NCBI GenBank assembly: GCA_043815885.1 | Contig: JBDRIL010000020.1 | Location: 1-27,040 of the forward strand | DNA: 27,040 nucleotides | Direction of reading: 5' to 3' | DNA from: an archaeon | Lineage (GTDB): Archaea > Iainarchaeota > Iainarchaeia > Iainarchaeales > 1-14-0-10-31-34 | Part shown: one piece after another, positions 428 through 16,435 of the stretch | Position numbering within the stretch: position 1 is the first letter of the stretch | Layout: every line of letters starts with the position of its first letter | Translations under genes and position numbers: made by a program | The notes under the pieces: generated by a model | Told to the model about the DNA's origin: nothing | The model's database searches: none | Seen by the model: the letters and a program-made list of their open reading frames with translations, nothing else

Positions 428-433
428 GGAGGT
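428..433 (+). promoter_or_regulatory. Shine-Dalgarno sequence for ATG 443
   Basis: GGAGGT ends 9 nt before ATG 443. Confidence 0.7.
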
Positions 434-442
434 TGATAAAAA

Positions 443-487
443 ATGAAAAACAAAAAAACAAATAGAAGGGATTTACTTTGGCAGTAA
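443..487 (+). CDS. 14-aa leader [17 protein letters not shown] upstream of and overlapping the trpB2 frame
   Basis: SD-led ATG 443, single Trp codon at 479-481, TAA at 485-487. The trpB2 frame is +1 relative to this ORF. Confidence 0.55.
467..482 (+). promoter_or_regulatory. Candidate prfB-like +1 ribosomal frameshift site AGG GAT TTA CTT TGG C
   Basis: Same codon register as E. coli prfB AGG GGG TAT CTT TGA C. A CTT-to-TTT slip enters the trpB2 frame at GGC 480. Confidence 0.45.
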
Positions 488-515
488 ACAAAAAATAATT
501 CTTCCAGAAGAAGAA

Positions 516-1754
516 TTGCCTAAATATTACTATAATATTTTGCCTGACCTGCCAAAAGAACTCCCTAAACCGGAAGGAAATCTGGAAGTACTTCCAAAAA
601 TCTTTGCAAAGAGTTTGCTGGAACAGGAATTCTCTCCTGAAAGAAGGGTTAGAATTCCGGAGGAAGTAAGGGAACTCTACTTCAAGTGCGGAAGGCCTTC
701 TCCAATTTACAGGGCAAAGAAATTAGAAGAATTTCTTAAGACCCCTGCAAGGATTTTCTTCAAGAGAGAAGACCTTTCTCCGACAGGATCACATAAACTC
801 AATACAGCTTTAGCCCAAGCATACTATATTGCAAAAGACGGTTTGGAGGAGGTGACAACAGAAACAGGGGCAGGCCAGTGGGGTTCGGCTCTGAGCTTAG
901 CTGCTTACTTTTTTGGATTGAAATGCAGGGTATTCATGGTTAAAGTAAGCTATCAGCAAAAACCCTACAGGAAGTATGTAATGAATTTCTTTAATGCAGA
1001 AGTTATTCCTTCTCCCTCCAGTGAAACCAGTGCAGGAAAAAAAGCCTTAAAAGAAAATCCAAATCATTTGGGTTCTCTTGGGCTAGCTATTTCAGAAGCA
1101 ATAGATTTCGCCTTGCAGAGTGACTCCAGAGCCTATTCTCTTGGTTCAGTGTTAAACCATGTTTTATTGCATCAGACAGTTATTGGAGAAGAAGCACTAA
1201 AGCAAATGCAATCCATTGAATTAATGCCTGACTATGTGATTGGATGCGTTGGAGGAGGAAGCAATTTTTCAGGTTTGGCCTATCCTTTCATTCGCCAGAG
1301 ACTGAAAAAGAAAGAGGAAATTAACTTCATTGCAGTTGAACCAAAGGAAGTCCCTTCTCTAACCAGAGCTCCATACATATTTGATTACGGAGACGAAGCA
1401 GAGCTAACACCAAAACTTAAAATGCATTCTTTGGGGCATAAATTTGCTTCTCCCCCAATCTATGCCGGAGGCTTGCGCTATCATGGATGCGCTCCAACAC
1501 TCTCCTTACTCAAAGAAGAAGGCATAGTGAGAGGAAAAGCCTATCCTCAGAAGGAGTGCTTTGATGCAGCAAAATTATTCGCAGAAAACGAAGGAATAAT
1601 TGTGGCTCCAGAAACATCCCATGCAGTAAAGGCAGTAATAGAAAAGGCACTGGAATGCAAGAGAAAGGAGGAAGAGAAAACAATTCTCTTTAATCTTTCA
1701 GGGCATGGATTACTGGACTTACAGGGGTATGCAGATATACTGAAATTCAAGTGA
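516..1754 (+). CDS. trpB2: TrpB2, stand-alone tryptophan synthase beta-like PLP enzyme. The frame is open from 447 and the conserved N-terminus begins upstream of TTG 516.
   Basis: GSHKLNTA (PLP lysine), [47 protein letters not shown] motifs. No trpA adjacent. Confidence 0.95.
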
Positions 1755-1761
1755 TGCAAAA

Positions 1762-2166
1762 ATGAGAAAACCATTCACCCTAACACTGGACTTCATTGAA
1801 GCAAGCAAACTAAGAAGCCATGAAAAAACCTCAGAGAAAAGAATGAACAGGATTGCAGAAGAAATCAACCAGGATAACTCTATTGTTCCAATCCTGGTTG
1901 ATTCCTCCTTTCTTGTTGTATTGGACGGGCACCACAGACTAAATTACTTGAAGAAATTGGGTTTCAAGAAGATTCCAGTACTGCTTACAGACTACTTCTC
2001 TGATAAATTAACTCTTTTCCCGAGAAGAAAAAAAATAAAATTAAATAAAAGGAAAGTAATCGAAAACGCTTTCTCTAATAGATTATTTCAATTCAAAACC
2101 ACAAGGCATTCAATTAAGGGAAATTATTTAATCAAGGTTCCACTGAATTTCATCAAAAGAAATTAA
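1762..2166 (+). CDS. ParB/sulfiredoxin-fold protein, compact SerK/SbnI-like free serine kinase candidate
   Basis: SHE, PILVD..VLDGHHR, DYF and C-terminal KTTRH motifs in the order recalled for Thermococcus SerK. Starts 7 nt after the trpB2 stop. Confidence 0.7.
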   Translation: MRKPFTLTLDFIEASKLRSHEKTSEKRMNRIAEEINQDNSIVPILVDSSFLVVLDGHHRLNYLKKLGFKKIPVLLTDYFSDKLTLFPRRKKIKLNKRKVIENAFSNRLFQFKTTRHSIKGNYLIKVPLNFIKRN

Positions 2167-2222: not shown

Positions 2223-2322
2223 GGGCCCTTAGCTCAGCCTGGTAGAGAAGAAGGTGAAATTCTTCCCAGTAAGCGTATCCTTGGCATGGATGAGGTCGCG
2301 CGTTCGAATCGCGCAGGGTCCA
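2223..2322 (+). tRNA. tRNA-Ala(GGC) with a 26-nt non-canonical D-arm intron (about 2246-2271)
   Basis: Acceptor stem GGGCCCT/AGGGTCC with G3:U70; anticodon arm TATCC-TTGGCAT-GGATG; T arm GCGCG-TTCGAAT-CGCGC. Removing 26 nt restores the D stem GCTC/GAGC. CCA is not encoded. Confidence 0.92.
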
Positions 2323-2374: not shown

Positions 2375-4222
2375 ATGCCTGCAGATAAGAAACAAATACT
2401 GATGCAAAGCATAGAGAAATTGCTTGCCTTAAAGGTTTCAGACGAAGAGATAGTGAAGGAATTAGTTGCTGTTGGATTGAGAGAGGATGATGCGAAATCG
2501 TTTTTAAAGCAGGCAAAAGAAAGCTACACTGGAATGAGCAGGCTGGACCAGAGAAAACTTAAAAGAGGCGGCGGGCCAGAAGAGATAGTCCTTCCTTCGA
2601 AGGAATCAGAAGAAACTAAAAAGGAAGTTGGCGAAGAAAAGGTAAAAAAATTAGAGGAAGAATTAAAGAAGGGAAGGGAAAAGAAAGAGGAAAACACCGC
2701 TTTTAAAAAAAGCAGTGGCGCAAAAACTGAAGATTTTAAAAAAAGCAGTGGCGCAAAAGCAGAAAAACCCGAAACAAAAAAGAAGGAAAAACCGGTAAAA
2801 GAAAAAAAAGTCAAAAAGCTTGCTCCGATAAAGAAGAGTGATGTGTGGGAGCAGGGAATCCTTACCACAATCAACCAGAAGATAGAGGAAATAGAGGACG
2901 TTCAAAGGGAATTGGATGAAGTCATTGATTCAAAGGTCCAGAAGCATTTAGAGGAAGAGAAAAAGAAGATGAATGCCTTGATTGAATCACAGTATTCCCT
3001 TCTCTATGAAAAAATTAATTCTGCTCTGGATGAAAAAGTGAATGAATTAAATAATGCTCTTGAAGAAAAAACAGAGAAATTCAATAAATTAAGCAAGAGT
3101 GTTGCTTCAGGCATTGCAAAACAGGCAGAGGAAAAAGCGTCATACGAACAATTACTGGAAGAAATAGAGAAAAGAATTGAGGATCTGCCTGATTTAAAGA
3201 AGCGGTTGGTTTCAAAGGTAGAGGAAGAAACAGAGCAGATGAAGAATTCATCCAAAAAATTCATTGAGGAAGCAGAGGAAGGCATGAATGAAATGGATGA
3301 AAGAATAAACAAGGCACTGGAATTAGAGACAAAAATCATTGAAGGTTTGGTTAAAGACACTGAAGAAAGAATACAGGAAATGGCTGAAAAGAGAAGCAAT
3401 TTTCTTTCAGGGGAATTAAAAGTAAAACTTGATGAATTAACTGAATTAAAGAAAAGCCTTACTCCTGGATTCGTTCAGGAAAAAACAAAGGAACTGTCAG
3501 TAAAAATGGAGGCAAAGATGCAGGAAATGATTTCATTAAAGGAAAGAGAAATAGACGAAGCAATAGAGATAAAGACAAAGGAACTGGATTCATTAAAACA
3601 GAAAATGGCTGGAGCAGAACAACTGACTAAAGCTGCTGCAGAAATAGAGAAGCTTTCTTCCTTCAAGGAGGATTTACAGAACCAATTGAATCAATCAAAA
3701 CAGGAAATAGAGAATTTAAAGGGTGAACTGAAGAAGTTTATTGGAGCGCAATTGATTGAAGCAAGCTCTGAAACAGAAGAAAAAATAAATGAACTATTTG
3801 AAAGAAGAAAGGATGAACTGGCTTTATTCCAGAAAAAATCGCAGGGCATTGATGTAGAGAAGTTTGAACAAAAAATGCAGGAACTCGATTCATTTAAAGA
3901 GCAATTCACTGAAATAATCCAGAAAAACATTTCCTCCATTAAGCGCACAAGAGAGGAAATGATCAGTGAACTGGATACAAAGGGAAGTTTAATTGATGGC
4001 AAGATTAATCAGATTAATTCAAAAATGGAAGAACTCAGTGCTTTTGAGAAAAACTTTGCAAGAGAAATGGGTTTGGCGGTAGAAAAACTGATTGAAAAAA
4101 AGAAGGTAATAAAGCCCTCCCAGCCAAAACCAAAGCCTGCTTCAAAGAAAAAGGAAGAAAGAGATGACTACATTAGGAAAGCATTTAAGGAAAGAATAAG
4201 AAAAGCAAAAAAAGGAAGATAA
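2375..4222 (+). CDS. Long Glu/Lys-rich coiled-coil protein of unknown function (615 aa)
   Basis: Long ORF with heptad-like E/K/L composition; no recognisable catalytic or Walker motif. Confidence 0.8.
   Translation: MPADKKQILMQSIEKLLALKVSDEEIVKELVAVGLREDDAKSFLKQAKESYTGMSRLDQRKLKRGGGPEEIVLPSKESEETKKEVGEEKVKKLEEELKKGREKKEENTAFKKSSGAKTEDFKKSSGAKAEKPETKKKEKPVKEKKVKKLAPIKKSDVWEQGILTTINQKIEEIEDVQRELDEVIDSKVQKHLEEEKKKMNALIESQYSLLYEKINSALDEKVNELNNALEEKTEKFNKLSKSVASGIAKQAEEKASYEQLLEEIEKRIEDLPDLKKRLVSKVEEETEQMKNSSKKFIEEAEEGMNEMDERINKALELETKIIEGLVKDTEERIQEMAEKRSNFLSGELKVKLDELTELKKSLTPGFVQEKTKELSVKMEAKMQEMISLKEREIDEAIEIKTKELDSLKQKMAGAEQLTKAAAEIEKLSSFKEDLQNQLNQSKQEIENLKGELKKFIGAQLIEASSETEEKINELFERRKDELALFQKKSQGIDVEKFEQKMQELDSFKEQFTEIIQKNISSIKRTREEMISELDTKGSLIDGKINQINSKMEELSAFEKNFAREMGLAVEKLIEKKKVIKPSQPKPKPASKKKEERDDYIRKAFKERIRKAKKGR
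2695..2759 (+). repeat. In-frame palindromic repeat family C (33-bp-period dimer), copy 1
   Basis: 57/65 nt identical to 20533-20597 by manual alignment; encodes TAFKKSSGAKTEDFKKSSGAK. Confidence 0.9.
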
Positions 4223-4259
4223 TCAAATTCTATTTAATTCTATGAATTGCATCAAAGCC

Positions 4260-4301
4260 ATCAAAAGACGTTAATTATTAAACTTTTTAATGTCTTTTGA
4301 T
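4260..4301. repeat. Palindromic repeat family B, copy 2 (opposite orientation)
   Basis: atcaaaagacgtta...taatgtcttttgat. Confidence 0.8.
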
Positions 4302-4372
4302 GTTAAATTAAAAAAGAAAACCAGCGATTAATATATATTGCAATTTAATTTAATTCATAAAGGTCTTAATTA

Positions 4373-7300
4373 ATGAATTTAAGGATTCCATGGGAATTAT
4401 TCATTCTTGCTTCAATCCTTTTATTCATTACAATCTTTTTTGTTCCGGTTCCTTTCAGCCCAGTAGGAAAAGCAATCTATTTTGATGCCCCAATAGCAAT
4501 GTATCATTTTGATGAGGGAAGCGGAACAGTAGTATATGATTCAAGTGACTATGGAAACAATGGAACTGTTCATGGAGCGGGATGGGTTGCAGGCTATGAC
4601 GGGACTGGTTATGCACTAAGCTTTGATGGAATTAATGATTATGTTAGTGTTTATGGTTCAACTGGCTTGAACCTGCTTCAAGGGGAGGGAACAATTTCGG
4701 CTTGGGTTTATACATTGGATTCAACTACTGCTTATGATCAAAGATTTGTAACAATGGGAGAAAATGATTTCTGGATTGGGACTTCAGCTGAAGGACCTAA
4801 TAGTAGGATCATGCTTAGGGGTTGGAATAGTGTTGAAGGTAATGTAGATGTTTTCTCAAATAAAACACTAAGTCTGTATGTGGGGGCTTGGCATCATGTT
4901 GCAGGCGTAGCTGATGGAAGTAATCTAAAACTGTATATTGATGGAGTTCTACAGAGTTCTGCTCGATTTAATGGTGTTGAAGTATTAGATAATTCGGTTT
5001 GGATAGGTAGTTGGTATTCTCCTGGAAATGGTTTTTTTCATGGAATGATTGACGAAGTAGTTATTTATGATTACGCTAAAACAAGTTTTGATATTTCTAT
5101 TCCTCCTACAGCCGAAGCAGGAGGACCTTACAATGGAGTAGTGAACCTAGCTTTTAGTATAACTGGAACAGGGCATGATGGAGATGGGGTAATTAGCAGC
5201 ATTCAATTTGGGTGCAGTAGCGGGGATGCTTCATGTAATTCCTATTGTATTTTGGAACCAGACCTGTTTCCAAACTGCCTTGTTACTGGCACTGGAACTC
5301 CAGACGCCAGTAGTCAATGTGGTATTTTATGTTCTAGAGCGGGAACATACACTTTTACTTTGACTGCAACAGATGATGACGGAGCAACAGCAACAGACAA
5401 TGCTACTGCAACTATTGTTGCAAATAATCCTCCGACTGCAAACGCAAACGAACCGTCAGGAGGCTATAAAGGAAAAGTTAATTCAAATATAACATTGCAT
5501 GGAACAGGAACTGATTCAGACGGAACAGTCAGTGAAATTTATTGGCATTTAGGTTCTGGAGGTGGAATCTGCAATCTTTCAAATGGAACCCCAACAGGGA
5601 TTGGAACAAAAACTGCAAATATTTATTCAACTCTCAATTGCTCTGCTGAAATAACATTTCAGGCAATATTGACTGTCAATGACAATTATTATGCAAGGGA
5701 CACAAAAACCGTAAATGTAGTTGTTTCAGTAAATGTTCCTCCAACAGCTGATGCAGATGGTTTTGTTGAGGGAGACCATTATGTTGGGCAAGTTAATTCA
5801 AATATTCAATTGAATGGTTCTGGTTCTGATTCTGATGGAACAATAAAGTCAATTAAATGGCAGACTACTGCTGCAGGTTGTACTATTACCCAGCACCAAG
5901 TCGGCCTTAACACCAACCATGCAACAAATGATGGAACAATCAGATGCAATTCCACTGGAAGAAAAGACATTGACTTGAATGTAACGGACAATTATGATGA
6001 TTCAACTATTGTTTCAACTTATGCTGGAGTCACTCCTGCAACTCCAACCGGACTGCAGGCAACAGGAGAAAATGCCAGGGTTGTTATTGCATGGTATGCG
6101 TCCACTGGAGCCATTTATTACAAGCTTGCCTGGAGAAAAGAAGGAATGTCAACTCCAGTAGTAATTCAAGTTAATTCCACTTCTTACACTCACACTGGAT
6201 TGACTAATGAAGTTCAGTACTGTTATTCTGTTGCTGCATGCAATTCTTTTGGCTGCAGTGGTTTTTCTTCCGAGGCCTGCGCTACTCCAAGCGCTCCATC
6301 AAATCCCGGCACTCCCCCAACGATTACTTCCTTTAATGCCATTGGAGGGAATGCTCAAGTCAGTTTGAGCTGGAGTGCTTCAGGTTCAACGCCAATAAAA
6401 TTTAACTTGGAGAGAAAATTGGGTTCAACAGGAACTTACGCTGTAATTTTATCCAATTCCACTTTGTATTCATTTCTTGATTCAGGGCTGGAGAACGAGA
6501 AAACTTATTATTACAGATTGACTGCATTCAATGATTATCCGCCTGACGCAACCAGAGAAACTTATGCGCAAACCCATTTGACTGGAACCAGCCCAAACAT
6601 CACCTTGTTTATTGTAATTGAAGGAGACCAAAAAGTTGAATTGAGCTGGACTGCAACAGGCACTTCTCCAATAAAATACACTTTGAGCAGAAAGATCGAA
6701 TCAACCGGAACATATTCAGCAATTCTCACAGATTATAATGGAAATTCCTTCACTGACTCAAATTTAACAAACAACAAAACTTACTACTACAAACTAAATG
6801 CAGTTAATCTCTTTGGTTCAGCCGAAAAAACCCTTACAGCTACCCCTCATATTGGAGAATGCGGGAATGAAAAACTTGAATCTGGAGAAGCCTGTGAGGT
6901 TGCAGAGGATTGTGATGACCCAAGAACTCAATGCGATTTAGTGAATAAAAGGTTTGGAGAGACAACAATTTCCTGTACCAAGTGTGAATGCATTGCCGGA
7001 AGCTGGAGCTGGAGCTACAGTAATTCAATTGGTTCTGATTACTGCATTAACTGCCAGTATTGCGGTGACGGGGAATGTAATTGCGGAGAAACAACTGACA
7101 CCTGTTCAGGAGATTGTGGAACGGGAGAGGATTTAACTCCTCCTTATGCTCCAAGAAACCCGAAGGCAACTCCAGGAGACGGAAAGATATTGCTTGAATG
7201 GACTGAAAACACTGAAATTGATTTAGATAAATATATAGTGTATTATGGTGCTACAAGTAAAGCGTATGACTTCAATGAAACTACCACTCATAATTATCTT

Positions 7301-7945
7301 GAAATCCATGGATTGATTAATGGATTAAAGTATTATTTTGCAGTAAAGGCAGTTGATTTCAGCGGCAATGCAAGTGATTTCTCCAGAGAGGTTTCTGCAA
7401 CTCCAGAAGAGGAGGAAGTACTCCCCCCAACCGATTTAGAGGTTTCAATTTCTGCAAAAAAGGTAAAGCTTTCATGGAAGCATGCTTCCCCCAGGCCCAA
7501 ACATTACGATATCTATAGAGATGGAGAATTTTTGGATTCCACTTCAGGCAGTTATTATTACGATGAAAGTGCTGAAGCCGGAGAAACCTATTCTTATTAC
7601 CTTTTAAGTGTTTCAGAGGAGGGAAAGGAAAGCAATAAATCAATGACTGTTGAGTTTGAGGTTCCAGGGAGTGATGCATGCAAGAAGGACGGTAAATGCA
7701 ATAAAGAAGAATGTGAAAGAACTGGCGATCCAGACTGTATTTGTAATTATGATGGAATCTGTGAAGAGGGAATAGAGAATGAATTCAATTGTCCTGATGA
7801 CTGTGAAGAAGTAGGAATTGATTGGGTTACTGGAGCCACAATTGGTTTAATCATTCTTGCGATCTCTGCTGCAGCAGCAGTATTTGTTTATAAGAAGAAG
7901 AAAGAGGAAGAAGGCTCAGAAGAACAAAACTTTTTCAAGTTCTGA
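4373..7945 (+). CDS. Membrane-anchored surface protein: LamG-like, PKD/Ig-like repeats, FN3 repeats, Cys-rich modules, C-terminal TM
   Basis: N-terminal hydrophobic helix; YHFDEGSG..DSS, WHHVAGV, LYIDG, GMIDEV (LamG); PPTAEAGGPY and D.DG.I repeats (PKD-like); L.W...YYY.L.A.N (FN3); CGN..LE.GE.CE; C-terminal TM followed by KKKK. Confidence 0.88.
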   Translation: MNLRIPWELFILASILLFITIFFVPVPFSPVGKAIYFDAPIAMYHFDEGSGTVVYDSSDYGNNGTVHGAGWVAGYDGTGYALSFDGINDYVSVYGSTGLNLLQGEGTISAWVYTLDSTTAYDQRFVTMGENDFWIGTSAEGPNSRIMLRGWNSVEGNVDVFSNKTLSLYVGAWHHVAGVADGSNLKLYIDGVLQSSARFNGVEVLDNSVWIGSWYSPGNGFFHGMIDEVVIYDYAKTSFDISIPPTAEAGGPYNGVVNLAFSITGTGHDGDGVISSIQFGCSSGDASCNSYCILEPDLFPNCLVTGTGTPDASSQCGILCSRAGTYTFTLTATDDDGATATDNATATIVANNPPTANANEPSGGYKGKVNSNITLHGTGTDSDGTVSEIYWHLGSGGGICNLSNGTPTGIGTKTANIYSTLNCSAEITFQAILTVNDNYYARDTKTVNVVVSVNVPPTADADGFVEGDHYVGQVNSNIQLNGSGSDSDGTIKSIKWQTTAAGCTITQHQVGLNTNHATNDGTIRCNSTGRKDIDLNVTDNYDDSTIVSTYAGVTPATPTGLQATGENARVVIAWYASTGAIYYKLAWRKEGMSTPVVIQVNSTSYTHTGLTNEVQYCYSVAACNSFGCSGFSSEACATPSAPSNPGTPPTITSFNAIGGNAQVSLSWSASGSTPIKFNLERKLGSTGTYAVILSNSTLYSFLDSGLENEKTYYYRLTAFNDYPPDATRETYAQTHLTGTSPNITLFIVIEGDQKVELSWTATGTSPIKYTLSRKIESTGTYSAILTDYNGNSFTDSNLTNNKTYYYKLNAVNLFGSAEKTLTATPHIGECGNEKLESGEACEVAEDCDDPRTQCDLVNKRFGETTISCTKCECIAGSWSWSYSNSIGSDYCINCQYCGDGECNCGETTDTCSGDCGTGEDLTPPYAPRNPKATPGDGKILLEWTENTEIDLDKYIVYYGATSKAYDFNETTTHNYLEIHGLINGLKYYFAVKAVDFSGNASDFSREVSATPEEEEVLPPTDLEVSISAKKVKLSWKHASPRPKHYDIYRDGEFLDSTSGSYYYDESAEAGETYSYYLLSVSEEGKESNKSMTVEFEVPGSDACKKDGKCNKEECERTGDPDCICNYDGICEEGIENEFNCPDDCEEVGIDWVTGATIGLIILAISAAAAVFVYKKKKEEEGSEEQNFFKF

Positions 7946-7997
7946 TTATTTTTTTGCGTTAAATTAAAAAACAAGGACTAATATATTAATTATTAGA

Positions 7998-10900
7998 ATG
8001 AATGAATCACTTCCTGTAAAGTTGCTTTTAATATCTTTTGTGTTAATCGTAGTTATTTCTATTGCAGTTTATTTTTCTTTTTCGGGCTTATCAACTCCTG
8101 CAGGAAAAGCAATCTATTTTGATGCCCCAATAGCAGTTTATAATTTTGATAATGATACTGCACAGGATTCAAGCGGTAATGGATTGCATGGAGTAATTGA
8201 AGGGAATCCTGTTTTTGTTGGCACAATTCACGGGAAAGGATTGAGTTTTGATGGAACCGGGGATGATGATTATGTTGGGGTTCCTGACAATTCCTTGTTT
8301 GATGTCCAGAATTTCACTATTGAGGCTTTCATTAAGCCTGCTTCAGATCCCAATGGCTGGGGGGGATATCATACAATTGTTTCAAAGCAAAGCCAATTCA
8401 TTTTTAGATTTGGGGGTTCAGGGCTTTACGGAATTACTAACTGCGGTTTCGCGAGCTTGCTTGGAAATGACTTTGATTGGATTGCAGGAAGATGGTATCA
8501 TTTGGCCTTTACTTATGATGGAAGCTTTTTGAGGCTTTACGTTGATGGAACAGAAAAAGCTTCCACTCCTTGCAGCACTCCGCCAGGCCATTCAGACCAC
8601 ACTTTGTTGATAGGCAATCATTTTGGCAGCTTAAACAATGAATTTGATGGAGTAATAGATGAAGTGGTTATTTCTAATTACGCCAAGACTTCATTCATTA
8701 TCCCAAACACCCCCCCAGAAGTTAATGCCGACGGCCCTTATTCTGGGGAAGTGAATTCAAATATTCAATTGAATGGTTCTGCAACAGATGATGAAAGCAT
8801 TGCTTCAATTGTTTGGTCCACAAGCGCTTCTGACTGCACCATAAATCAAAACCCGATTATTATTGATTACACTGCAACCAACAATGGAACAATTAATTGC
8901 TCTACTGTTGGCGCAAAAAACCTCACTTTAACTGCAACAGACAACACTGGATTAACTTCAACTGCCAATTCAACAGTGAATGTAACAGAACAGCAGAAAA
9001 CAATTGCATTATATCACTTAAATGAAGGAAACGGCACAATAATAAATGATTCAAGCGGAAACAATTTGAATGGAAACATTGTTGGTTCCCCAACTTTTGT
9101 TGGCACTCCCTGGGTTGCAGGATTAAATTTTAATAGAAGCGGAGGAAATTACGCTGAAGTTCCGGATGATGATTTGTTTGATATAAACAGTTTTACTATT
9201 GAGGCTTGGATTAAGCCTGCAACAAACACTTCTTCTTGGAGCTACTACCACACAATTGTTTCAAAAGATGCCCAATATATTTTGGGATTCCGTGACAATC
9301 TCATTCAAGGAATTGTTAATCCATATGCAATTGAAGCCCCCTTTAATGGAACCGCCGGAAATTGGTATCACATAGCGTTTACTTATGACAGTATTACCAA
9401 AAGAATGAAATTATATGTTGGAAATACTGAAGTGGCTGCTTCAAATCCTTTATCGCATGGCCCTATTCCATCGAGTGGTTCTCTGAGAATTGGAAATCAC
9501 TCTGTTGCAGACAACCATAATGAATTTGATGGAGTAATTGATGAAGTGATTATTTCCAATTACGCCAAAACATCTTTTGATGTCTCAATTCCTTCTGATT
9601 CAATTCCTCCAGCAAAAATCACAGATTTAGGCATGAATTGTTCCTGGGCTCCAGTAGCAATGTCATGCATTCTTAATTGGACTGCTCCAGGAGATGACGG
9701 CAGTTCAGGCTTGGCTTCATCTTATGATATAAGGTTTTCCAGTAGCAATTTTCCTCCAACTACATGGGATGGGGCCCTGAAAGTAAACCATGAACCCCTT
9801 CCAGTTCCAGCAGGAACCCCACAGTCAATGACTGTAGATGGATTAGTTCCCCGCGATGCTTATTATTTTGTGATGAAAACAGGGGATGAAGTACCTAATT
9901 GGTCAGAAATGTCAAATGTAGCTGTCTGGACCAGAACTTCTTCCGACACAATCCCTCCATCTGCAATTACCAATCTTTCAGTTCCCTCATGCAGCAATAA
10001 TTCCTGTTCTTTGAGTTGGACTGCTCCTGGTGATGACGGAAGTTCAGGCACTGCTTCTCAGTATGATTTAAGGTATTCTATTTCAAATATCACTGAGTCT
10101 AATTGGAATTCAGCAACCCAAGCTACTGGTGAGCCTTCACCGCAGATTGCAGGTACAACTCAGTCAATGAGTGTAACTGGATTGAGTCCTTCAACTACTT
10201 ATTATTTTGCGATTAAAACTGCGGATGAAGTGCCTAACTGGTCAGCTATTTCCAATGTTCCAAGCAGAGCTACTGGTTCAACTTCTGATTCAACCCCTCC
10301 AACTGTTTCAATCACTTCTCCTTTGAATGGTGCAACTGTTTCTGGGGTTGTTTCTGTTTCAGCTACTGCTTCAGATAATGTTGGTGTAACTAAAGTGGAA
10401 TTTCATGTTTCAAACAGTTTAAAGTCAACTGATAATTCTTCTCCTTATTCTTTTGACTGGAATACCTTGCAGTATGCCAATGGAAATTATTCTTTGAAAG
10501 CAGTTGCTTTTGATGCAGCGGACAATAATGCTTCTAGTTCAATTAATGTTGATGTGAATAATAGTTCTTCTTCTGTTGTTTTTTGCGGTAATGGAGTTTT
10601 AGAACTAGGAGAAGCCTGTGAGAATGATTCTCATTGCAGTCCTGAAACACAGTGTGATTCAGCGAATAAGAGGTATGGAGAAAGAACTGCAAGTTGTAGT
10701 GCATGTGAATGTGATTATGGAAGCTGGAGCTGGAGCTCTACCTCTTACTGCAGTAATTGTAATTCTTGTGGGGATGATTCCTGTAATTGCGGGGAAACCT
10801 CTACGACTTGTTCTGGAGACTGTGGAGGGGGGGATGATACAATTCCTCCTTCTAGGCCTATTGGATTGACTGCCACAAGTGGAGAGCAAAAAGTTGATTT

Positions 10901-11606
10901 GGACTGGAATGATAATTCTGAAGCAGATCTTTCCCACTACATTGTATTTTATGGTTTGTCTTCTGGTTCCTATGACTGGAATGTAATGGTAACGAGTTCA
11001 AGTGCAACAATTCTGGATTTAGGGGAAGAAGTAAGATATTATTTTGCTGTAAAGGCAGTTGATTACACTGGAAATAAAAGCACTTTCTCTGACGAGGTTT
11101 CTGCTGTAACTTCAGCAGTTTCACTCAAGCCTCCAAAAAACATTAATATCTCTCTTACAGATGAAAAAATCAGGGTTAATTGGTCTTTTGCTGTTCCTGA
11201 ACCAGACCATTACGATGTATACAAGAATGGAAAGTTTGTTACTGCTACAACAGAAAATTATTACCTTGATTCCAAATACGAGAAAGGAGAAACTTATTCA
11301 TACTATGTAAAGAGTATTGCAATAGACGGTTCTGAGAGCGATAAATCAAAAACAGTGAGTATTTCAATTCCAGGGGAAGATCCATGCAGAAAGAACGGAG
11401 AATGTAATGAAGATTGCAATAGAACTGAAGACCCTGACTGCTTATGCATTGAAAACGGAATATGTGAAACTGAATTCGAGAACACAGAAAACTGTCCAGC
11501 TGACTGTGAAGAAATGCCAATAGATTATTACACTAATTTAAGTATTGGATTAGGGTTAGTGATTGTTTCAGCAGTAATCGCAGTAATCTTCTTCAAGAAA
11601 GCCTGA
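7998..11606 (+). CDS. Paralogous membrane-anchored surface protein: two LamG-like, PKD-like, FN3, bacterial Ig-like and Cys-rich modules, C-terminal TM
   Basis: Two WYH.AFTYD/FDGVIDEV units; two WTAPGDDG FN3-like units; PPTVSITSP..ATASDNVGVTKVEF Ig-like unit; C-terminal ~330 aa collinear with the preceding gene. Confidence 0.88.
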   Translation: MNESLPVKLLLISFVLIVVISIAVYFSFSGLSTPAGKAIYFDAPIAVYNFDNDTAQDSSGNGLHGVIEGNPVFVGTIHGKGLSFDGTGDDDYVGVPDNSLFDVQNFTIEAFIKPASDPNGWGGYHTIVSKQSQFIFRFGGSGLYGITNCGFASLLGNDFDWIAGRWYHLAFTYDGSFLRLYVDGTEKASTPCSTPPGHSDHTLLIGNHFGSLNNEFDGVIDEVVISNYAKTSFIIPNTPPEVNADGPYSGEVNSNIQLNGSATDDESIASIVWSTSASDCTINQNPIIIDYTATNNGTINCSTVGAKNLTLTATDNTGLTSTANSTVNVTEQQKTIALYHLNEGNGTIINDSSGNNLNGNIVGSPTFVGTPWVAGLNFNRSGGNYAEVPDDDLFDINSFTIEAWIKPATNTSSWSYYHTIVSKDAQYILGFRDNLIQGIVNPYAIEAPFNGTAGNWYHIAFTYDSITKRMKLYVGNTEVAASNPLSHGPIPSSGSLRIGNHSVADNHNEFDGVIDEVIISNYAKTSFDVSIPSDSIPPAKITDLGMNCSWAPVAMSCILNWTAPGDDGSSGLASSYDIRFSSSNFPPTTWDGALKVNHEPLPVPAGTPQSMTVDGLVPRDAYYFVMKTGDEVPNWSEMSNVAVWTRTSSDTIPPSAITNLSVPSCSNNSCSLSWTAPGDDGSSGTASQYDLRYSISNITESNWNSATQATGEPSPQIAGTTQSMSVTGLSPSTTYYFAIKTADEVPNWSAISNVPSRATGSTSDSTPPTVSITSPLNGATVSGVVSVSATASDNVGVTKVEFHVSNSLKSTDNSSPYSFDWNTLQYANGNYSLKAVAFDAADNNASSSINVDVNNSSSSVVFCGNGVLELGEACENDSHCSPETQCDSANKRYGERTASCSACECDYGSWSWSSTSYCSNCNSCGDDSCNCGETSTTCSGDCGGGDDTIPPSRPIGLTATSGEQKVDLDWNDNSEADLSHYIVFYGLSSGSYDWNVMVTSSSATILDLGEEVRYYFAVKAVDYTGNKSTFSDEVSAVTSAVSLKPPKNINISLTDEKIRVNWSFAVPEPDHYDVYKNGKFVTATTENYYLDSKYEKGETYSYYVKSIAIDGSESDKSKTVSISIPGEDPCRKNGECNEDCNRTEDPDCLCIENGICETEFENTENCPADCEEMPIDYYTNLSIGLGLVIVSAVIAVIFFKKA

Positions 11607-14217: not shown

Positions 14218-14564
14218 AGGAAAAACTTTCTTTAAAACCAATTCCTCTCTCCCTGAGGGAAAAAAAGAGATACATTGTATTTGAATTAATCAGTAAAGAG
14301 AGATTCAATTTCAGGAACGTGAGAAGTGAATTGAATAGAATCCTCTTTGATTTATTCGGTGAAAAAGGAGTGAGTGAATTAAGCTTTAACTTCATTCTAT
14401 TCAATGAAAAAAACAGCAAAGGCATTATCAGGTGCAGGCACACAGAAACAGAAAAAGCAAAGACAGCAATCCTCTTCCTCAAAGAAATTAATTCTATTAA
14501 AGCAATCCCAAAAATAGTCAGGGCTTCTGGTTCCATCAAGAAAGCGAAATCATTCGTTCAATAG
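14214..14564 (+). CDS. rnp2: Ribonuclease P protein component 2 (Pop5/Rpp14)
   Basis: LKP.P.SLREKKRYIVFE, GIIRC.H, SGSIKKAK. Confidence 0.93.
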   Translation: MKEKLSLKPIPLSLREKKRYIVFELISKERFNFRNVRSELNRILFDLFGEKGVSELSFNFILFNEKNSKGIIRCRHTETEKAKTAILFLKEINSIKAIPKIVRASGSIKKAKSFVQ

Positions 14565-15447
14565 GCTTCCTTGCTTTATCCATAATCTCTTTTGGCAATA
14601 CTACTTCGATCCTCTCTTCTTCCAATGCCCTCAGAGTCAATTCAAGTGAATTCTTCTTCATCTGCAGACAAGTAGCCCCAGGAGGGGCAGCATAAAACAC
14701 TTTTTCTGGTGCCACTATTTTCAATCTATTAATCATTCCACTCTCTGTCCCGATAATGAATTCCCTTGCATCTGTTTCCTTTACATACTTCACCATTCCC
14801 TCAGTTGAATGCACTGCATGAGCCAGCTTAATTACTTCCGGCCTGCATTCAGGATGCACCACTACTTTTGCTTCGGGATGTTCTTTCATTGCTTTTTCAA
14901 GCAGTACTGCATCAATCTTGTCATGCACATAACAATATCCATTCCATGGAATAATCTTTTTTTCAGGCAGCTTGCTCTGAACATACAGAGCCAGGTTCTT
15001 GTCAGGAACAAAAATAATTTCCTTTTCAGGAATAGAAGAAATCACTTTCACTGCATTGGCTGAAGTGCAGCAATAATCTGATTCAGCCTTTATCTCAGCA
15101 AGAGTATTCACATAAGAAACCACTGCTGCTTCAGGATACTTTTCCTTTTCCTTCTTTAATTCCTCTGCAGTAATCATTGCAGCCATAGGGCATTTAGCTT
15201 CTTTAGTTGGAATCAATACCTTTTTTTCCGGGCTCAATACCTTTGCTGTCTCAGCCATGAAATCAACGCCACAAAAAACAATTATGTCTGCTTCAGTCTT
15301 AGAGGCTTCCCTGCTTAACCCCAAACTGTCTCCAATAAAATCCGCCACTTCATAAATCTCCGGCTTCTGGTAATTGTGAACGAGCATTACTGCATTCTTT
15401 TCCTTCTTCAATTCATTAATCTTCTTCTGCAATTCTTTTGTATTCAT
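14536..15447 (-). CDS. nadA: Quinolinate synthase
   Basis: HNYQ, GDSL.L, FCGV.FMAETAK, CPMA, YVNT, CTSANA, PD.NL, C.VH, HPEC, C.QMK. Confidence 0.97.
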   Translation of the reverse strand: MNTKELQKKINELKKEKNAVMLVHNYQKPEIYEVADFIGDSLGLSREASKTEADIIVFCGVDFMAETAKVLSPEKKVLIPTKEAKCPMAAMITAEELKKEKEKYPEAAVVSYVNTLAEIKAESDYCCTSANAVKVISSIPEKEIIFVPDKNLALYVQSKLPEKKIIPWNGYCYVHDKIDAVLLEKAMKEHPEAKVVVHPECRPEVIKLAHAVHSTEGMVKYVKETDAREFIIGTESGMINRLKIVAPEKVFYAAPPGATCLQMKKNSLELTLRALEEERIEVVLPKEIMDKARKPIERMISLS

Positions 15448-15462
15448 AAAAAAAAGCTTCCT

Positions 15463-16272
15463 TTAAGTACCAATTACAATGCTTTCATTTAAATTCTTTA
15501 ATGTCCTGACTGCAGAGAGTGCTGCAAGAAATGAAGTCCTTGGGTTTTCAGGAAAAGGAATATTCTCAGTTCTGGTATAAAGTTCTCCAAATTCTCCTTT
15601 AACTTTAATTTCATGCCTGTTTATTTTAATTGAAGGATCCACAACAATCCTGACTTTAGTATTCTTTACCCCGATTCCTGCAAGAGACAAAGCAACTGAA
15701 ACGTTGATATTCTTTGGAAAGAATTTTGCTGCCTCTAATGCATTTCCCTCAAAAACAATTGTCGGCTTCCTTATTTCCTTTAAATCAATCTTTTTTTCCT
15801 TAAAGAACGGAGCCCCCTCAAGTGATTCAGGAGACTTGGTTGAAGTAAGCATAACTTCCTCAATTCCTGCTTCCATTGCTGCCTTCACTGCATCCAGTCC
15901 GGCAATCGCTCCAGAAGGAAGGTAAATCTTTTTCCCCTTGCTTTCAGCTTTCTCCCTTAATTTTTTTAATAATCCCTCTTCCTTTAATGCCCCGACAGAC
16001 ATAATCATTAAATTGCATTCTTCAAGAATCCTTTCAGCATATTCTTTCACTGCTTCCTGTGAAGCTGCTTCAACAATTAAATCGCATTCAAGCATTTCTT
16101 CCACTGAATCAACGATTTTAGGCTTTTCCTTTAATTTCCCAATTAATTCCTCGCATTTGCTTTTATTCAAATCAAGCACAAAACCCAATTCCATTCCTTT
16201 TTCTTTCTCCAGTGCCTTTGCAATAACGCTTCCGATTGCTCCGCATCCAATCAATCCAATCTTGATACCCAA
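15463..16272 (-). CDS. nadX: L-aspartate dehydrogenase (likely start TTG 16272)
   Basis: IGLIGCGAIG, VEAAS, SVGAL, PSGAIAGLD, FP.NINV, N.HEI, NPRTS.LAALS; lies directly upstream of nadA. Confidence 0.94.
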   Translation of the reverse strand: MGIKIGLIGCGAIGSVIAKALEKEKGMELGFVLDLNKSKCEELIGKLKEKPKIVDSVEEMLECDLIVEAASQEAVKEYAERILEECNLMIMSVGALKEEGLLKKLREKAESKGKKIYLPSGAIAGLDAVKAAMEAGIEEVMLTSTKSPESLEGAPFFKEKKIDLKEIRKPTIVFEGNALEAAKFFPKNINVSVALSLAGIGVKNTKVRIVVDPSIKINRHEIKVKGEFGELYTRTENIPFPENPRTSFLAALSAVRTLKNLNESIVIGT

Positions 16273-16435
16273 ACACCCCTTAAAAAAGAAATAAAAGCTT
16301 CCAGATACTCTAATATTAACCAAAAATAAGGTTAAAAAAGAATTCTTTTGTCAATCAAGGGAAACAATTAAGTTTTAAAAGCTATTTATATTATTAATAA
16401 TAAGAACAGGAGAAAGAAGGACAGGAGGATTTTTT

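Follow-up and report, generated by a model that had tools for sequence, protein, structure and literature searches.

SerK of Thermococcus kodakarensis (TK0378; PDB entries 5x0b, 5x0e and 5x0j) and PF0380 of Pyrococcus (1vk1) are ADP-dependent free L-serine kinases, and SbnI of Staphylococcus (5uje, 5ujd and 6nr6) is an ATP-dependent one that serves staphyloferrin B synthesis and, by its NCBIfam name, also has a role as a regulator. SbnI is about 254 amino acids (aa) long with an extra domain, and it supplies O-phospho-L-serine (phosphoserine) to the neighboring pyridoxal phosphate (PLP) enzyme SbnA. SerK of T. kodakarensis was reported to be specific for free serine (PMC5120207), and the available text of Makino 2016 places clear SerK homologs only in Thermococcales and Desulfurococcales, in four hyperthermophile genera. 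Phosphoserine is also used by TrpB2 enzymes according to PMC11917138, which cites Busch 2014. The prfB frameshift site, which likewise bears on the locus described here, consists of AGGGGG resembling a Shine-Dalgarno (SD) sequence, three bases, CTT T, and then TGA and C (PMC12421855). The locus lies in a 27,040-nt stretch (contig JBDRIL010000020.1, positions 1 to 27,040, hereafter the window) of an archaeal genome of the Iainarchaeota (GCA_043815885.1; 1.16 Mb, 62 contigs, 37% G+C, completeness estimate 91.7%), in which a trpB2 gene is followed by an open reading frame (ORF) for a short SerK-like protein of 134 aa. An earlier note on this DNA had read the pair as a two-gene, phosphoserine-dependent tryptophan salvage pathway, a reading that is supported in silico by homology, fold, recurrence, the wider family and the organism's own gene inventory, and that we regard as probable.

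Both genes are on the forward strand. The first canonical start of trpB2 is a TTG at position 516, from which the ORF extends through 412 aa to a TGA stop (516..1754, stop at 1752-1754). The earlier note had delimited the pair as 516..2166; position 516 is indeed the first canonical start, but conserved TrpB2 N-terminal sequence is already in frame from 477, and the frame 477..1754, from the candidate shift site described below to the TGA, carries the match to the TrpB2 model NF009057. A spacer of 7 nt (1755..1761), in which no SD-like sequence could be read, separates the stop from the ATG at 1762 that opens the 134-aa ORF (1762..2166), exactly as previously noted. The frame of the small ORF has no start codon upstream of this ATG, and the short distance together with the missing SD makes translational coupling to trpB2 likely. 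None of the 25 other ORFs scanned in the window is a trp gene, in agreement with the same note.

Among the NCBIfam models, SerK ranked first for the 134-aa protein (E 5.3e-15), ahead of SbnI (E 1.1e-6) and ParB (E 4e-4), and the top match of a phmmer search of the PDB was T. kodakarensis SerK (5x0b, E 2.4e-9). Residues 10-102 align with SerK 19-116 and residues 95-120 with SerK 204-229, a jump indicating that roughly SerK 117-203 is missing; what remains is a ParB/Srx-type core with the C-terminal KTTRH strand. The four motifs listed by the earlier note were all located in the translation (SHE at 19-21, DGHHR at 55-59, DYF at 77-79 and KTTRH at 112-116), and the last three correspond to SerK 69-73, 91-93 and 221-225, so that the earlier note's description of an absent inserted domain with the motif order kept proved accurate. 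E21 aligns with E30, the catalytic Glu of the SerK HE motif and the residue mutated in the E30A/E30Q entries 5x0e and 5x0j.

The fold comparison agreed with the sequence comparison. An AlphaFold (AF2) model of the 134-aa protein, built from 14 homologs (pLDDT 93.6), was matched by VIA-align to Pyrococcus 1vk1 with Z 17.6 and to SerK 5x0j with Z 16.5 (root-mean-square deviation 2.3 A, 128/134 residues, model 5-132 on chain 14-242), while SbnI reached Z 12.8-15.8, and Srx (sulfiredoxin), ParB and Noc no more than 8.0. Foldseek gave a TMq of ~0.80 for SerK/SbnI-type structures, with SbnI as the top match, versus ~0.45 for the ParB/Srx type. The match covers the whole chain and stands clear of the generic ParB/Srx fold; the profile and structure comparison called for by the earlier note is thus settled on the side of SerK and SbnI, and the 134-aa protein is of the SerK/SbnI type, a SerK with its inserted domain cleanly removed.

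The short form belongs to a large family. A word-indexed search returned 13 relatives of 127-161 aa, and a profile search of 1.84 billion cluster representatives returned 4330 matches at E<=1e-3, of which 1602 passed E<=1e-10 and 101 passed E<=1e-30; among the 150 profile matches listed, lengths of 112-180 aa predominated, and the short form was found in DPANN archaea, other archaea and several bacterial phyla. H20, E21, D55, G56, H57, H58, R59, Y78, K96 and H116 were invariant in 89/89 distinct short forms, which includes the catalytic Glu that the earlier note wanted checked, and K112 was kept in 88/89. This pattern indicates a conserved active site and not a decaying fragment. Some relatives are larger: P0077 is fused to CysK/M (395.7 bits, cut-off 344), P0021 to a CysM-like domain, and the longer P0157 carries a SerK_C domain. 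Other fusions of the core (P0116, P0126, P0121, P0155 and P0083) involve nucleotidyltransferases, an S-adenosylmethionine methyltransferase, a SET domain and an NAD-binding oxidoreductase domain, and several longer family proteins hold two copies of the core.

The partner gene encodes a genuine TrpB2, scoring 638.5 bits with NF009057 (cut-off 366) and 627.8 bits with TIGR01415 (cut-off 518.85); the ordinary trpB model gave it only 171 bits. Its closest solved chains were 6hul_B, 6hte_B and 4qys_B, with 6hul_B nearest, and the GSHK motif (G91, S92, H93, K94) was invariant across 14 aligned TrpB2 sequences, its Lys being the one that binds PLP. The protein contains a single Trp in 412 aa, which is not unusual for this genome, where 61/303 long ORFs have one or none. 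A complex prediction for TrpB2 with the small protein returned a score of 0.00 (mark 0.32) and no verdict, and was used neither way.

The gene inventory of the organism agreed with the salvage reading. Within the assembled genome, estimated at 91.7% complete, no match was found for trpA, trpC or trpE (anthranilate synthase fold), and TrpB2 was the only match with the PALP fold. SepRS was not found in this genome, the sole match being the PheRS alpha subunit; neither was SerC, the Aminotran_5 matches being SufS, NifS and a sugar aminotransferase, nor SerA, the sole match of the 2-hydroxyacid dehydrogenase type being AhcY (adenosylhomocysteinase). Within the assembled part, the small kinase is therefore the only visible source of phosphoserine and TrpB2 its only visible user.

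In the phylum of the window, TrpB2 scored above the cut-off in 22/215 genomes, and a short-form match (E<=1e-32) was detected in five genomes of one family, always beside trpB2 (n = 5/5). The small gene lies upstream of trpB2 in the four relatives and downstream in the window, indicating that the linkage survived a rearrangement. A strong match to short phosphoglycerate dehydrogenase (PGDH; E ~1e-120) was present in 9/17 of the TrpB2-bearing genomes that have no small gene versus 0/5 of those that have it, a split that fits alternative sources of phosphoserine.

Gene neighborhoods of the short form were surveyed in genomes (one per species, 29 loci) and in metagenomes (80 loci, in which 72 of 89 listed ORFs were scanned, the other 17 looking like duplicates by position and length); three sequences were identical between the surveys (L041 = L001, L047 = L004 and L066 = L006). 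The pairing of trpB2 with a short ParB-N gene, whose recurrence the earlier note had left to such a survey, was found in 5/29 genome loci (Gracilibacteria, Microgenomates, Micrarchaeota, and metagenome-assembled genomes of Symbiobacterium and Eubacteriales) and in 8/80 metagenome loci, of which one matches a genome locus exactly, and so extends across Archaea, bacteria of the candidate phyla radiation (CPR) and Bacillota. SepRS (508 and 497 bits, cut-off 381) and SepCysS stand beside the small gene in two Micrarchaeota loci (L002 and L004), and the SepRS-SepCysS pair is adjacent in 8/80 metagenome loci. CysK or CysM-like neighbors occur in L009, L010, L012, L074, L103, L104 and L108. One genome locus is flanked by CysK-type genes, two Desulfurococcales loci have a CysM-like gene two genes downstream, and CysM-like or CysK genes are adjacent in 5-6 of the 80 metagenome loci. 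CobD/CbiB is adjacent in 3/80 metagenome loci.

In the Micrarchaeota-type loci (L002, L004, L050, L052-L054, L060, L062 and L072) the short form is convergent with SepRS and SepCysS at a distance of ~50 nt, where it may provide the phosphoserine needed to make cysteine on tRNA. In two Ignisphaera loci (L006 and L011) the short form directly follows CobD (threonine-phosphate decarboxylase-like), CobS and CbiB, as it does in metagenome loci L066, L087 and L094; this well-supported CobD/CobS/CbiB-linked clade is a candidate for an archaeal L-threonine kinase of cobamide synthesis. A conserved 121-aa protein with no Pfam or NCBIfam match was observed between the kinase gene and the CysM-like gene in loci of the Desulfurococcales type (L010, L012, L103, L104, L107 and L108). 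In the largest context group (~25 metagenome loci, e.g. L067, L081, L095, L101 and L105), the short form stands between a dehydrogenase of the glyoxylate-reductase/PGDH-like kind, upstream, and the glycine-cleavage H protein (GcvH), downstream, in some cases with P protein, ACT-domain proteins or an aminotransferase nearby; the group resembles the serine-assimilation clusters noted for full-length serK in Makino 2016. A SerA label for the upstream dehydrogenase was discarded, its best score being glyoxylate reductase-like and below the cut-off (L067), not PGDH. In one clade (L048, L056, L058, L065, L073, L075, L077 and L083), a V4R-domain gene invariably faces the short form and a PRC-barrel gene often lies upstream; no phosphoserine user was visible among the scanned neighbors of this clade.

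A TrpRS label for the class-I synthetase downstream of the short form in L042, L061, L063 and L089 was likewise rejected, since the full-length proteins of L042 and L063 are TyrRS by NCBIfam (371 bits); a TrpRS neighbor occurs in L003 only, so that the tree group name 'TrpRSorTrpR' is a misnomer. In L061, a gene of the tryptophanase/tyrosine-phenol-lyase family, the small kinase gene and the class-I synthetase gene stand in a row, and in L016 a true tyrosine phenol-lyase lies 2 kb from a trpB2-kinase pair. The contexts of L061, L042, L063, L089 and L016 may represent an analogous phosphoserine-dependent route of tyrosine salvage. In L038, a short contig, a 95-aa TrpR-like protein (464-748; Pfam Trp_repressor 52 bits, NCBIfam TrpR 46 bits, below its cut-off) is encoded just upstream of the short-form kinase gene.

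Context labels clustered strongly by descent. On a quick maximum-likelihood tree of 94 sequences and 131 columns, limited by the short alignment and long branches, context labels required 19 changes versus 62 when shuffled, and none of 200 shuffles came as low. Most TrpB2-linked sequences (n = 14/17), the window included, fell in one group (SH-aLRT 90), and the SepRS, cobamide and dehydrogenase/GcvH groups were each well supported, the cobamide clade standing apart at SH-aLRT 100. At alignment position 88 (R88 in the window) most clades have Trp and the TrpB2-linked group has Arg; copies free of Trp make up 12/17 of the TrpB2-linked versus 0/62 in six other context groups, and the cobamide, TyrRS/TrpR and ASS-context groups are likewise without Trp. 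The Trp-free short forms of the TrpB2-linked group are at least a lineage trait, the copies being kin.

In the pathway proposed for the window, the 134-aa protein would be a SerK/SbnI-type kinase of free L-serine, pared down to the ParB/Srx-like core that binds nucleotide and carries out catalysis, and would phosphorylate scavenged serine to phosphoserine; the stand-alone TrpB2 would then condense phosphoserine with scavenged indole, the phosphate being replaced, to give L-tryptophan; the kinase would probably be translated by coupling to trpB2. The kinase step rests on homology, fold, conserved active-site residues and gene context, and the TrpB2 step on the family membership found here and on the substrate preference of characterized TrpB2 enzymes. 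It is reasonably likely, in our view, that with these two steps a reduced archaeal genome holds a tryptophan salvage unit complete in itself.

Several points weigh against this proposal. With 55.2 bits over positions 18-113 of 244, the protein misses the curated cut-off of 380 of the SerK model NF053625, and no Pfam match to the inserted SerK_C domain (PF18231) was found in its 134 aa; on these two counts it falls outside SerK formally, while the motifs and the fold all agree. The active site of SerK lies between its two domains and here the core is alone, so that kinase activity of a core without SerK_C is a prediction, unproven, from sequence. The phosphoserine preference of the window TrpB2 is presumed, having been carried over from characterized TrpB2 enzymes. 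The five phylum genomes with the small gene are close kin and related genomes are not independent samples, and 17/22 of the TrpB2-bearing genomes have no small gene, eight of these also having no strong PGDH match, which means that TrpB2 often occurs without a visible source of phosphoserine. As to the phosphate donor, an archaeal SerK-like protein was reported to bind CTP and not ATP (PMC12704722). Finally, contexts with no evident phosphoserine user exist (cobamide, V4R and PRC-barrel neighbors; NTP-transferase, methyltransferase and SET fusions), which suggests that the substrate may vary within the family.

This last point feeds an alternative in which the protein has the SerK/SbnI fold and phosphorylates a small molecule or binds a nucleotide, its substrate being not L-serine but threonine, homoserine or another hydroxy compound, or in which it is a nucleotide-dependent regulatory partner of TrpB2. 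The position of family members after CobD, CobS and CbiB in cobamide clusters (L006 and L011), the fusions to nucleotidyltransferases, a methyltransferase and a SET domain, the loss of a lid domain that may help to bind serine, and the reported CTP binding all speak for it; however, the window protein groups with TrpB2-linked members apart from the cobamide clade, phosphoserine is the one substrate common to the TrpB2, SepRS and CysK/M partners, the characterized SerK is by report free-serine-specific (PMC5120207), and the window's genome holds no other plausible user, so that we consider this alternative fairly unlikely. Very improbable is a ParB-like nuclease or DNA-binding protein placed beside trpB2 by chance. 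One name in the family points that way, NCBI calling one homolog a 'ParB N-terminal domain-containing protein', as the earlier note had foreseen of automatic annotation (JGI names another 'L-serine kinase (ADP)'); the protein also has a weak Pfam ParB_N match (16.5 bits, under the cut-off of 26.3), and PF0380, a close relative of SerK, was once reported as a nuclease (PMC5120207). Yet its 134 aa include no helix-turn-helix or dimerization domain, ParB and Noc score Z <=8 against 16-17 for SerK, and the linkage to TrpB2 outlasts an inversion of gene order and occurs in both Archaea and Bacteria.

The 5' end of trpB2 has an unusual organization. An SD sequence, GGAGG (428..432, forward strand, as are all elements that follow), was read 10 nt upstream of the ATG of a 14-codon leader ORF (443..487; ATG 443, TAA 485-487), whose frame is one base behind that of trpB2. 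The leader ATG overlaps the TGA (444-446) that closes the trpB2 frame; this frame is open from 447, no ATG, GTG or TTG occurs in it between that TGA and the TTG at 516, and 477-515 encodes N-terminal sequence conserved in TrpB2 relatives. The leader has a single Trp codon (479-481), which follows a CTT (476-478) and is followed one codon further by the stop. An internal, purine-rich, SD-like element, AGAAGGGA (464..471), lies 4 nt (TTTA) upstream of the CTT, and together they form a candidate +1 frameshift site, CTT TGG C (476..482), read as Leu-Trp in the leader frame and as TTT GGC in the trpB2 frame. In a census of the genome, this was the only SD-like element with a CTT/GCC-TGG site at which the main frame is closed upstream; a second site, on contig C7, that passed the three-part filter was rejected, its surroundings being an ordinary open frame that has starts of its own.

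Measured against the prfB pattern, the window has the SD-like element, the spacer TTTA and CTT TGG C, as do 14 further loci of the CTT/GTT type, and its frames are arranged accordingly, the trpB2 frame being closed upstream and the leader frame soon downstream (485-487). The codon in the A site is a sense UGG in place of the stop UGA, so that the site is prfB-like and not a member of the class, and the quantity sensed would be charged tRNA-Trp. Ribosomes would load at the leader SD and ATG and, when UGG is read slowly as charged tRNA-Trp becomes scarce, tRNA-Leu would slip +1 from CUU to UUU and enter the trpB2 frame at GGC (480-482); synthesis of both enzymes would thereby be coupled to tryptophan starvation, as a shortage of release factor 2 (RF2) acts at the prfB site. 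In prfB, tRNA-Leu(GAG) can re-pair on UUU, and this tRNA is present among the 28 that ARAGORN detected in the window's genome. ARAGORN found no tRNA-Trp in the genome, which was taken as incompleteness or the presence of intron-bearing genes, not as absence. An RNA run (X5) yielded only three 31-letter pieces and was not used.

The layout recurs. In the window's phylum it was found in 14 of 21 assessable trpB2 loci (23 in total, two cut by contig ends), ten with CTT TGG C (one with A after TGG) and four, all of one genus, with GCC TGG C, a variant that resembles the antizyme site UCC UGA U; the other seven loci have ordinary in-frame SD and ATG starts or no leader. It was also found in 4 of 18 assessable loci (19 in total) of the phylum of Micrarchaeota locus L005 and, as GTT TGG C, on one metagenome contig, and in 0/9 bacterial trpB2 genes beside a short-form gene. 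Among 40 archaeal trpB2 genes, the nearest upstream SD and ATG required a +1 shift in 19, was in frame in 15, required a -1 shift in one and was absent in five. The leaders of the 19 loci have 9-36 codons, an SD ahead of the ATG (n = 19/19) and one Trp codon each, placed where the trpB2 frame opens, with the stop 1-21 codons later; the related loci have G-rich SD-like elements at a distance of 3-7 nt ahead of the site. In 14/15 sites of the CTT/GTT type, the trpB2-frame codon that precedes TTT has C as its last base, although it encodes V, Y, A, G or H, and a third-position C kept across five amino acids points to selection on the nucleotide. In nine of the 19 loci, the trpB2 frame offers no canonical start from its upstream stop to the site, and in three (G126, G135 and G120) the trpB2-frame stop abuts it. 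The genus with GCC TGG C comprises G126, G124, G135 and G120 (L124, L128, L133 and L134), and in three of these four a TAG directly precedes the site.

Whether a tryptophan-sensing +1 frameshift operates at the start of trpB2 is a question separate from the salvage pathway, and we judge its chances to be even or slightly better. The P-site codon varies (CTT, GCC or GTT), as does the SD-like spacing (3-7 nt), the lineages with the layout are related, so that the loci are not independent, and the TGG of the leader frame results in part from a T-ending codon followed by a Gly codon in the trpB2 frame. Moreover, in 10/19 loci an ATG, GTG or TTG stands in frame at 1-12 codons ahead of the site, which also favors an explanation with no frameshift at all: TTG 516, or a near-cognate codon (ATA 462, for example), would be the start of translation, and the leader would be either an ordinary upstream ORF that hands ribosomes on by termination and reinitiation or a TnaC-like, tryptophan-sensing arrest peptide that shuts off the downstream start while tryptophan is abundant. 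The leader stops, 1-21 codons past the Trp codon, are near possible internal starts, and Trp near the end of the leader is reminiscent of arrest peptides of the TnaC type. On the other hand, the nine loci in which no canonical start precedes the conserved N-terminal stretch, and the three in which a stop abuts the site, speak against it; the stretch from the site to the internal start is conserved as protein (e.g. a Ser encoded by AGT in the window and by TCA in G113), and it is also translated in the homologs G125 and G127, whose starts are normal. No SD precedes the internal starts, and the SD-like element, the 3-4 nt, the CTTT and the C that follows match prfB, with the third-position C retained across five amino acids. 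We therefore consider a start without frameshifting doubtful, while leaving it a substantial minority share of the probability.

It could also be argued that the leader ATG is out of frame by artefact, either through an assembly indel in the run of seven A (452-458), where one A fewer would put ATG 443 in the trpB2 frame, or through transcriptional slippage on A runs, many leaders being A-rich. Contigs of two other runs, however, cover 401-635 and 384-534 without gaps, that of a third run differs only by a 9-nt insertion just after the leader ATG and leaves 464-487 unchanged, and the same frame relation is seen in 19 separately assembled loci. Slippage on A runs is excluded as a general mechanism by five leaders (G135, L005, L145, L149 and L150) in which no such run occurs from the ATG to the site. 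Assembly error and transcriptional slippage were accordingly rejected, and retain next to no probability.

The pairing of TrpB2 with a serine kinase was not found in the published literature searched. The available text of Makino 2016 does not mention tryptophan, and that of GapMind 2026 and of a 2025 survey of ParB-CTPases mentions SerK and SbnI, and neither a TrpB2 pairing nor a short form; the kinase is a domain-minimal form of a known kind of enzyme, and its pairing with TrpB2 appears to be undescribed. A 2021 review of archaeal recoding, in its available text, lists one demonstrated case, a -1 shift, and never mentions tryptophan or trpB. That a Trp-codon +1 frameshift gates a stand-alone trpB2 in DPANN archaea, together with a coupled lid-less kinase that would be the smallest known form of the SerK fold, is a combined claim that falls just short of an even balance in our estimation.

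If correct, the salvage pathway would extend the free-serine kinases, so far studied in two lineages, to a large family of ~130-aa proteins in Archaea and Bacteria, most of which are named ParB N-terminal domain proteins or hypothetical, and would offer a candidate phosphoserine source for organisms that have TrpB2, SepRS-SepCysS or a phosphoserine-type CysK and are without SerA and SerC. With two genes and with serine and indole obtained by scavenging, a reduced symbiont would be able to make tryptophan for itself, which bears on models of cross-feeding in DPANN and CPR organisms. The frameshift, if true, would let translation itself sense a single amino acid directly, and would be a rare case of archaeal recoding and a cellular +1 frameshift in Archaea; gene callers would be assigning wrong starts to these trpB2 genes, and the shift site, being short, would be portable.

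Downstream of the pair, an Rfam tRNA match (2223-2322, forward strand, 100 nt, 46.1 bits) covers the full model, so that the gene is intron-bearing; ARAGORN missed it. By eye, and as an unverified reading, it resembles a tRNA-Ala(GGC) that has the G3-U70 pair and whose D-arm region carries an insert. It is followed by genes for a 615-aa Lys/Glu-rich protein, probably a coiled coil, and two surface-protein-like repeat-domain proteins of ~1200 aa (2375-11606), and further on by NadA and aspartate dehydrogenase (14536-16323) and a row of proteasome, SBDS and exosome genes. Other genes of the window include those for the proteasome alpha subunit, exosome subunits, RNase P proteins and ribosomal proteins L15e and L37ae.

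Set beside the characterized TrpB2 enzymes of Sulfolobus (6hul_B, 6hte_B and 4qys_B), Thermotoga and Thermococcus, the window protein is a full-length member of the same family and stands alone without TrpA, as expected of indole salvage; unlike them, it comes from a genome in which no other trp gene was found, and a putative kinase gene adjoins it. The small protein has its best sequence and fold match in the SerK enzymes, and both are linked to enzymes that consume phosphoserine. It differs from SerK in size, 134 versus 242 aa with ~87 residues absent, and in its partner gene, which is trpB2, whereas SerK is linked to CysK or serine catabolism. With SbnI it has the fold in common, at a weaker sequence similarity, and like SbnI it would serve a PLP enzyme encoded next to it with phosphoserine.

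The candidate shift site is closest to that of prfB, with which it has in common the SD-like element, the slippery CTT T, a slowly read codon followed by C and a position near the start of the gene. The main product likewise lies in the +1 frame and the 0-frame product is short and ends soon, and the logic is alike, a shortage of the factor that reads the A site raising synthesis of the protein that would relieve the shortage. The prfB host is bacterial and its SD spacing is 3 nt, whereas the window is archaeal, with a spacing of 4 nt and a site variant, GCC TGG C, among its relatives. The Ty1 site CUU AGG C offers a second parallel, with CUU in the P site, a slowly read 'hungry' sense codon in the A site and GGC as the first +1 codon (PMC5009743). 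The Ty1 and antizyme sites are eukaryotic, however, and neither governs an enzyme of amino-acid biosynthesis; Ty1 depends on the scarcity of a tRNA, whereas the candidate trpB2 site would depend on the supply of an amino acid.

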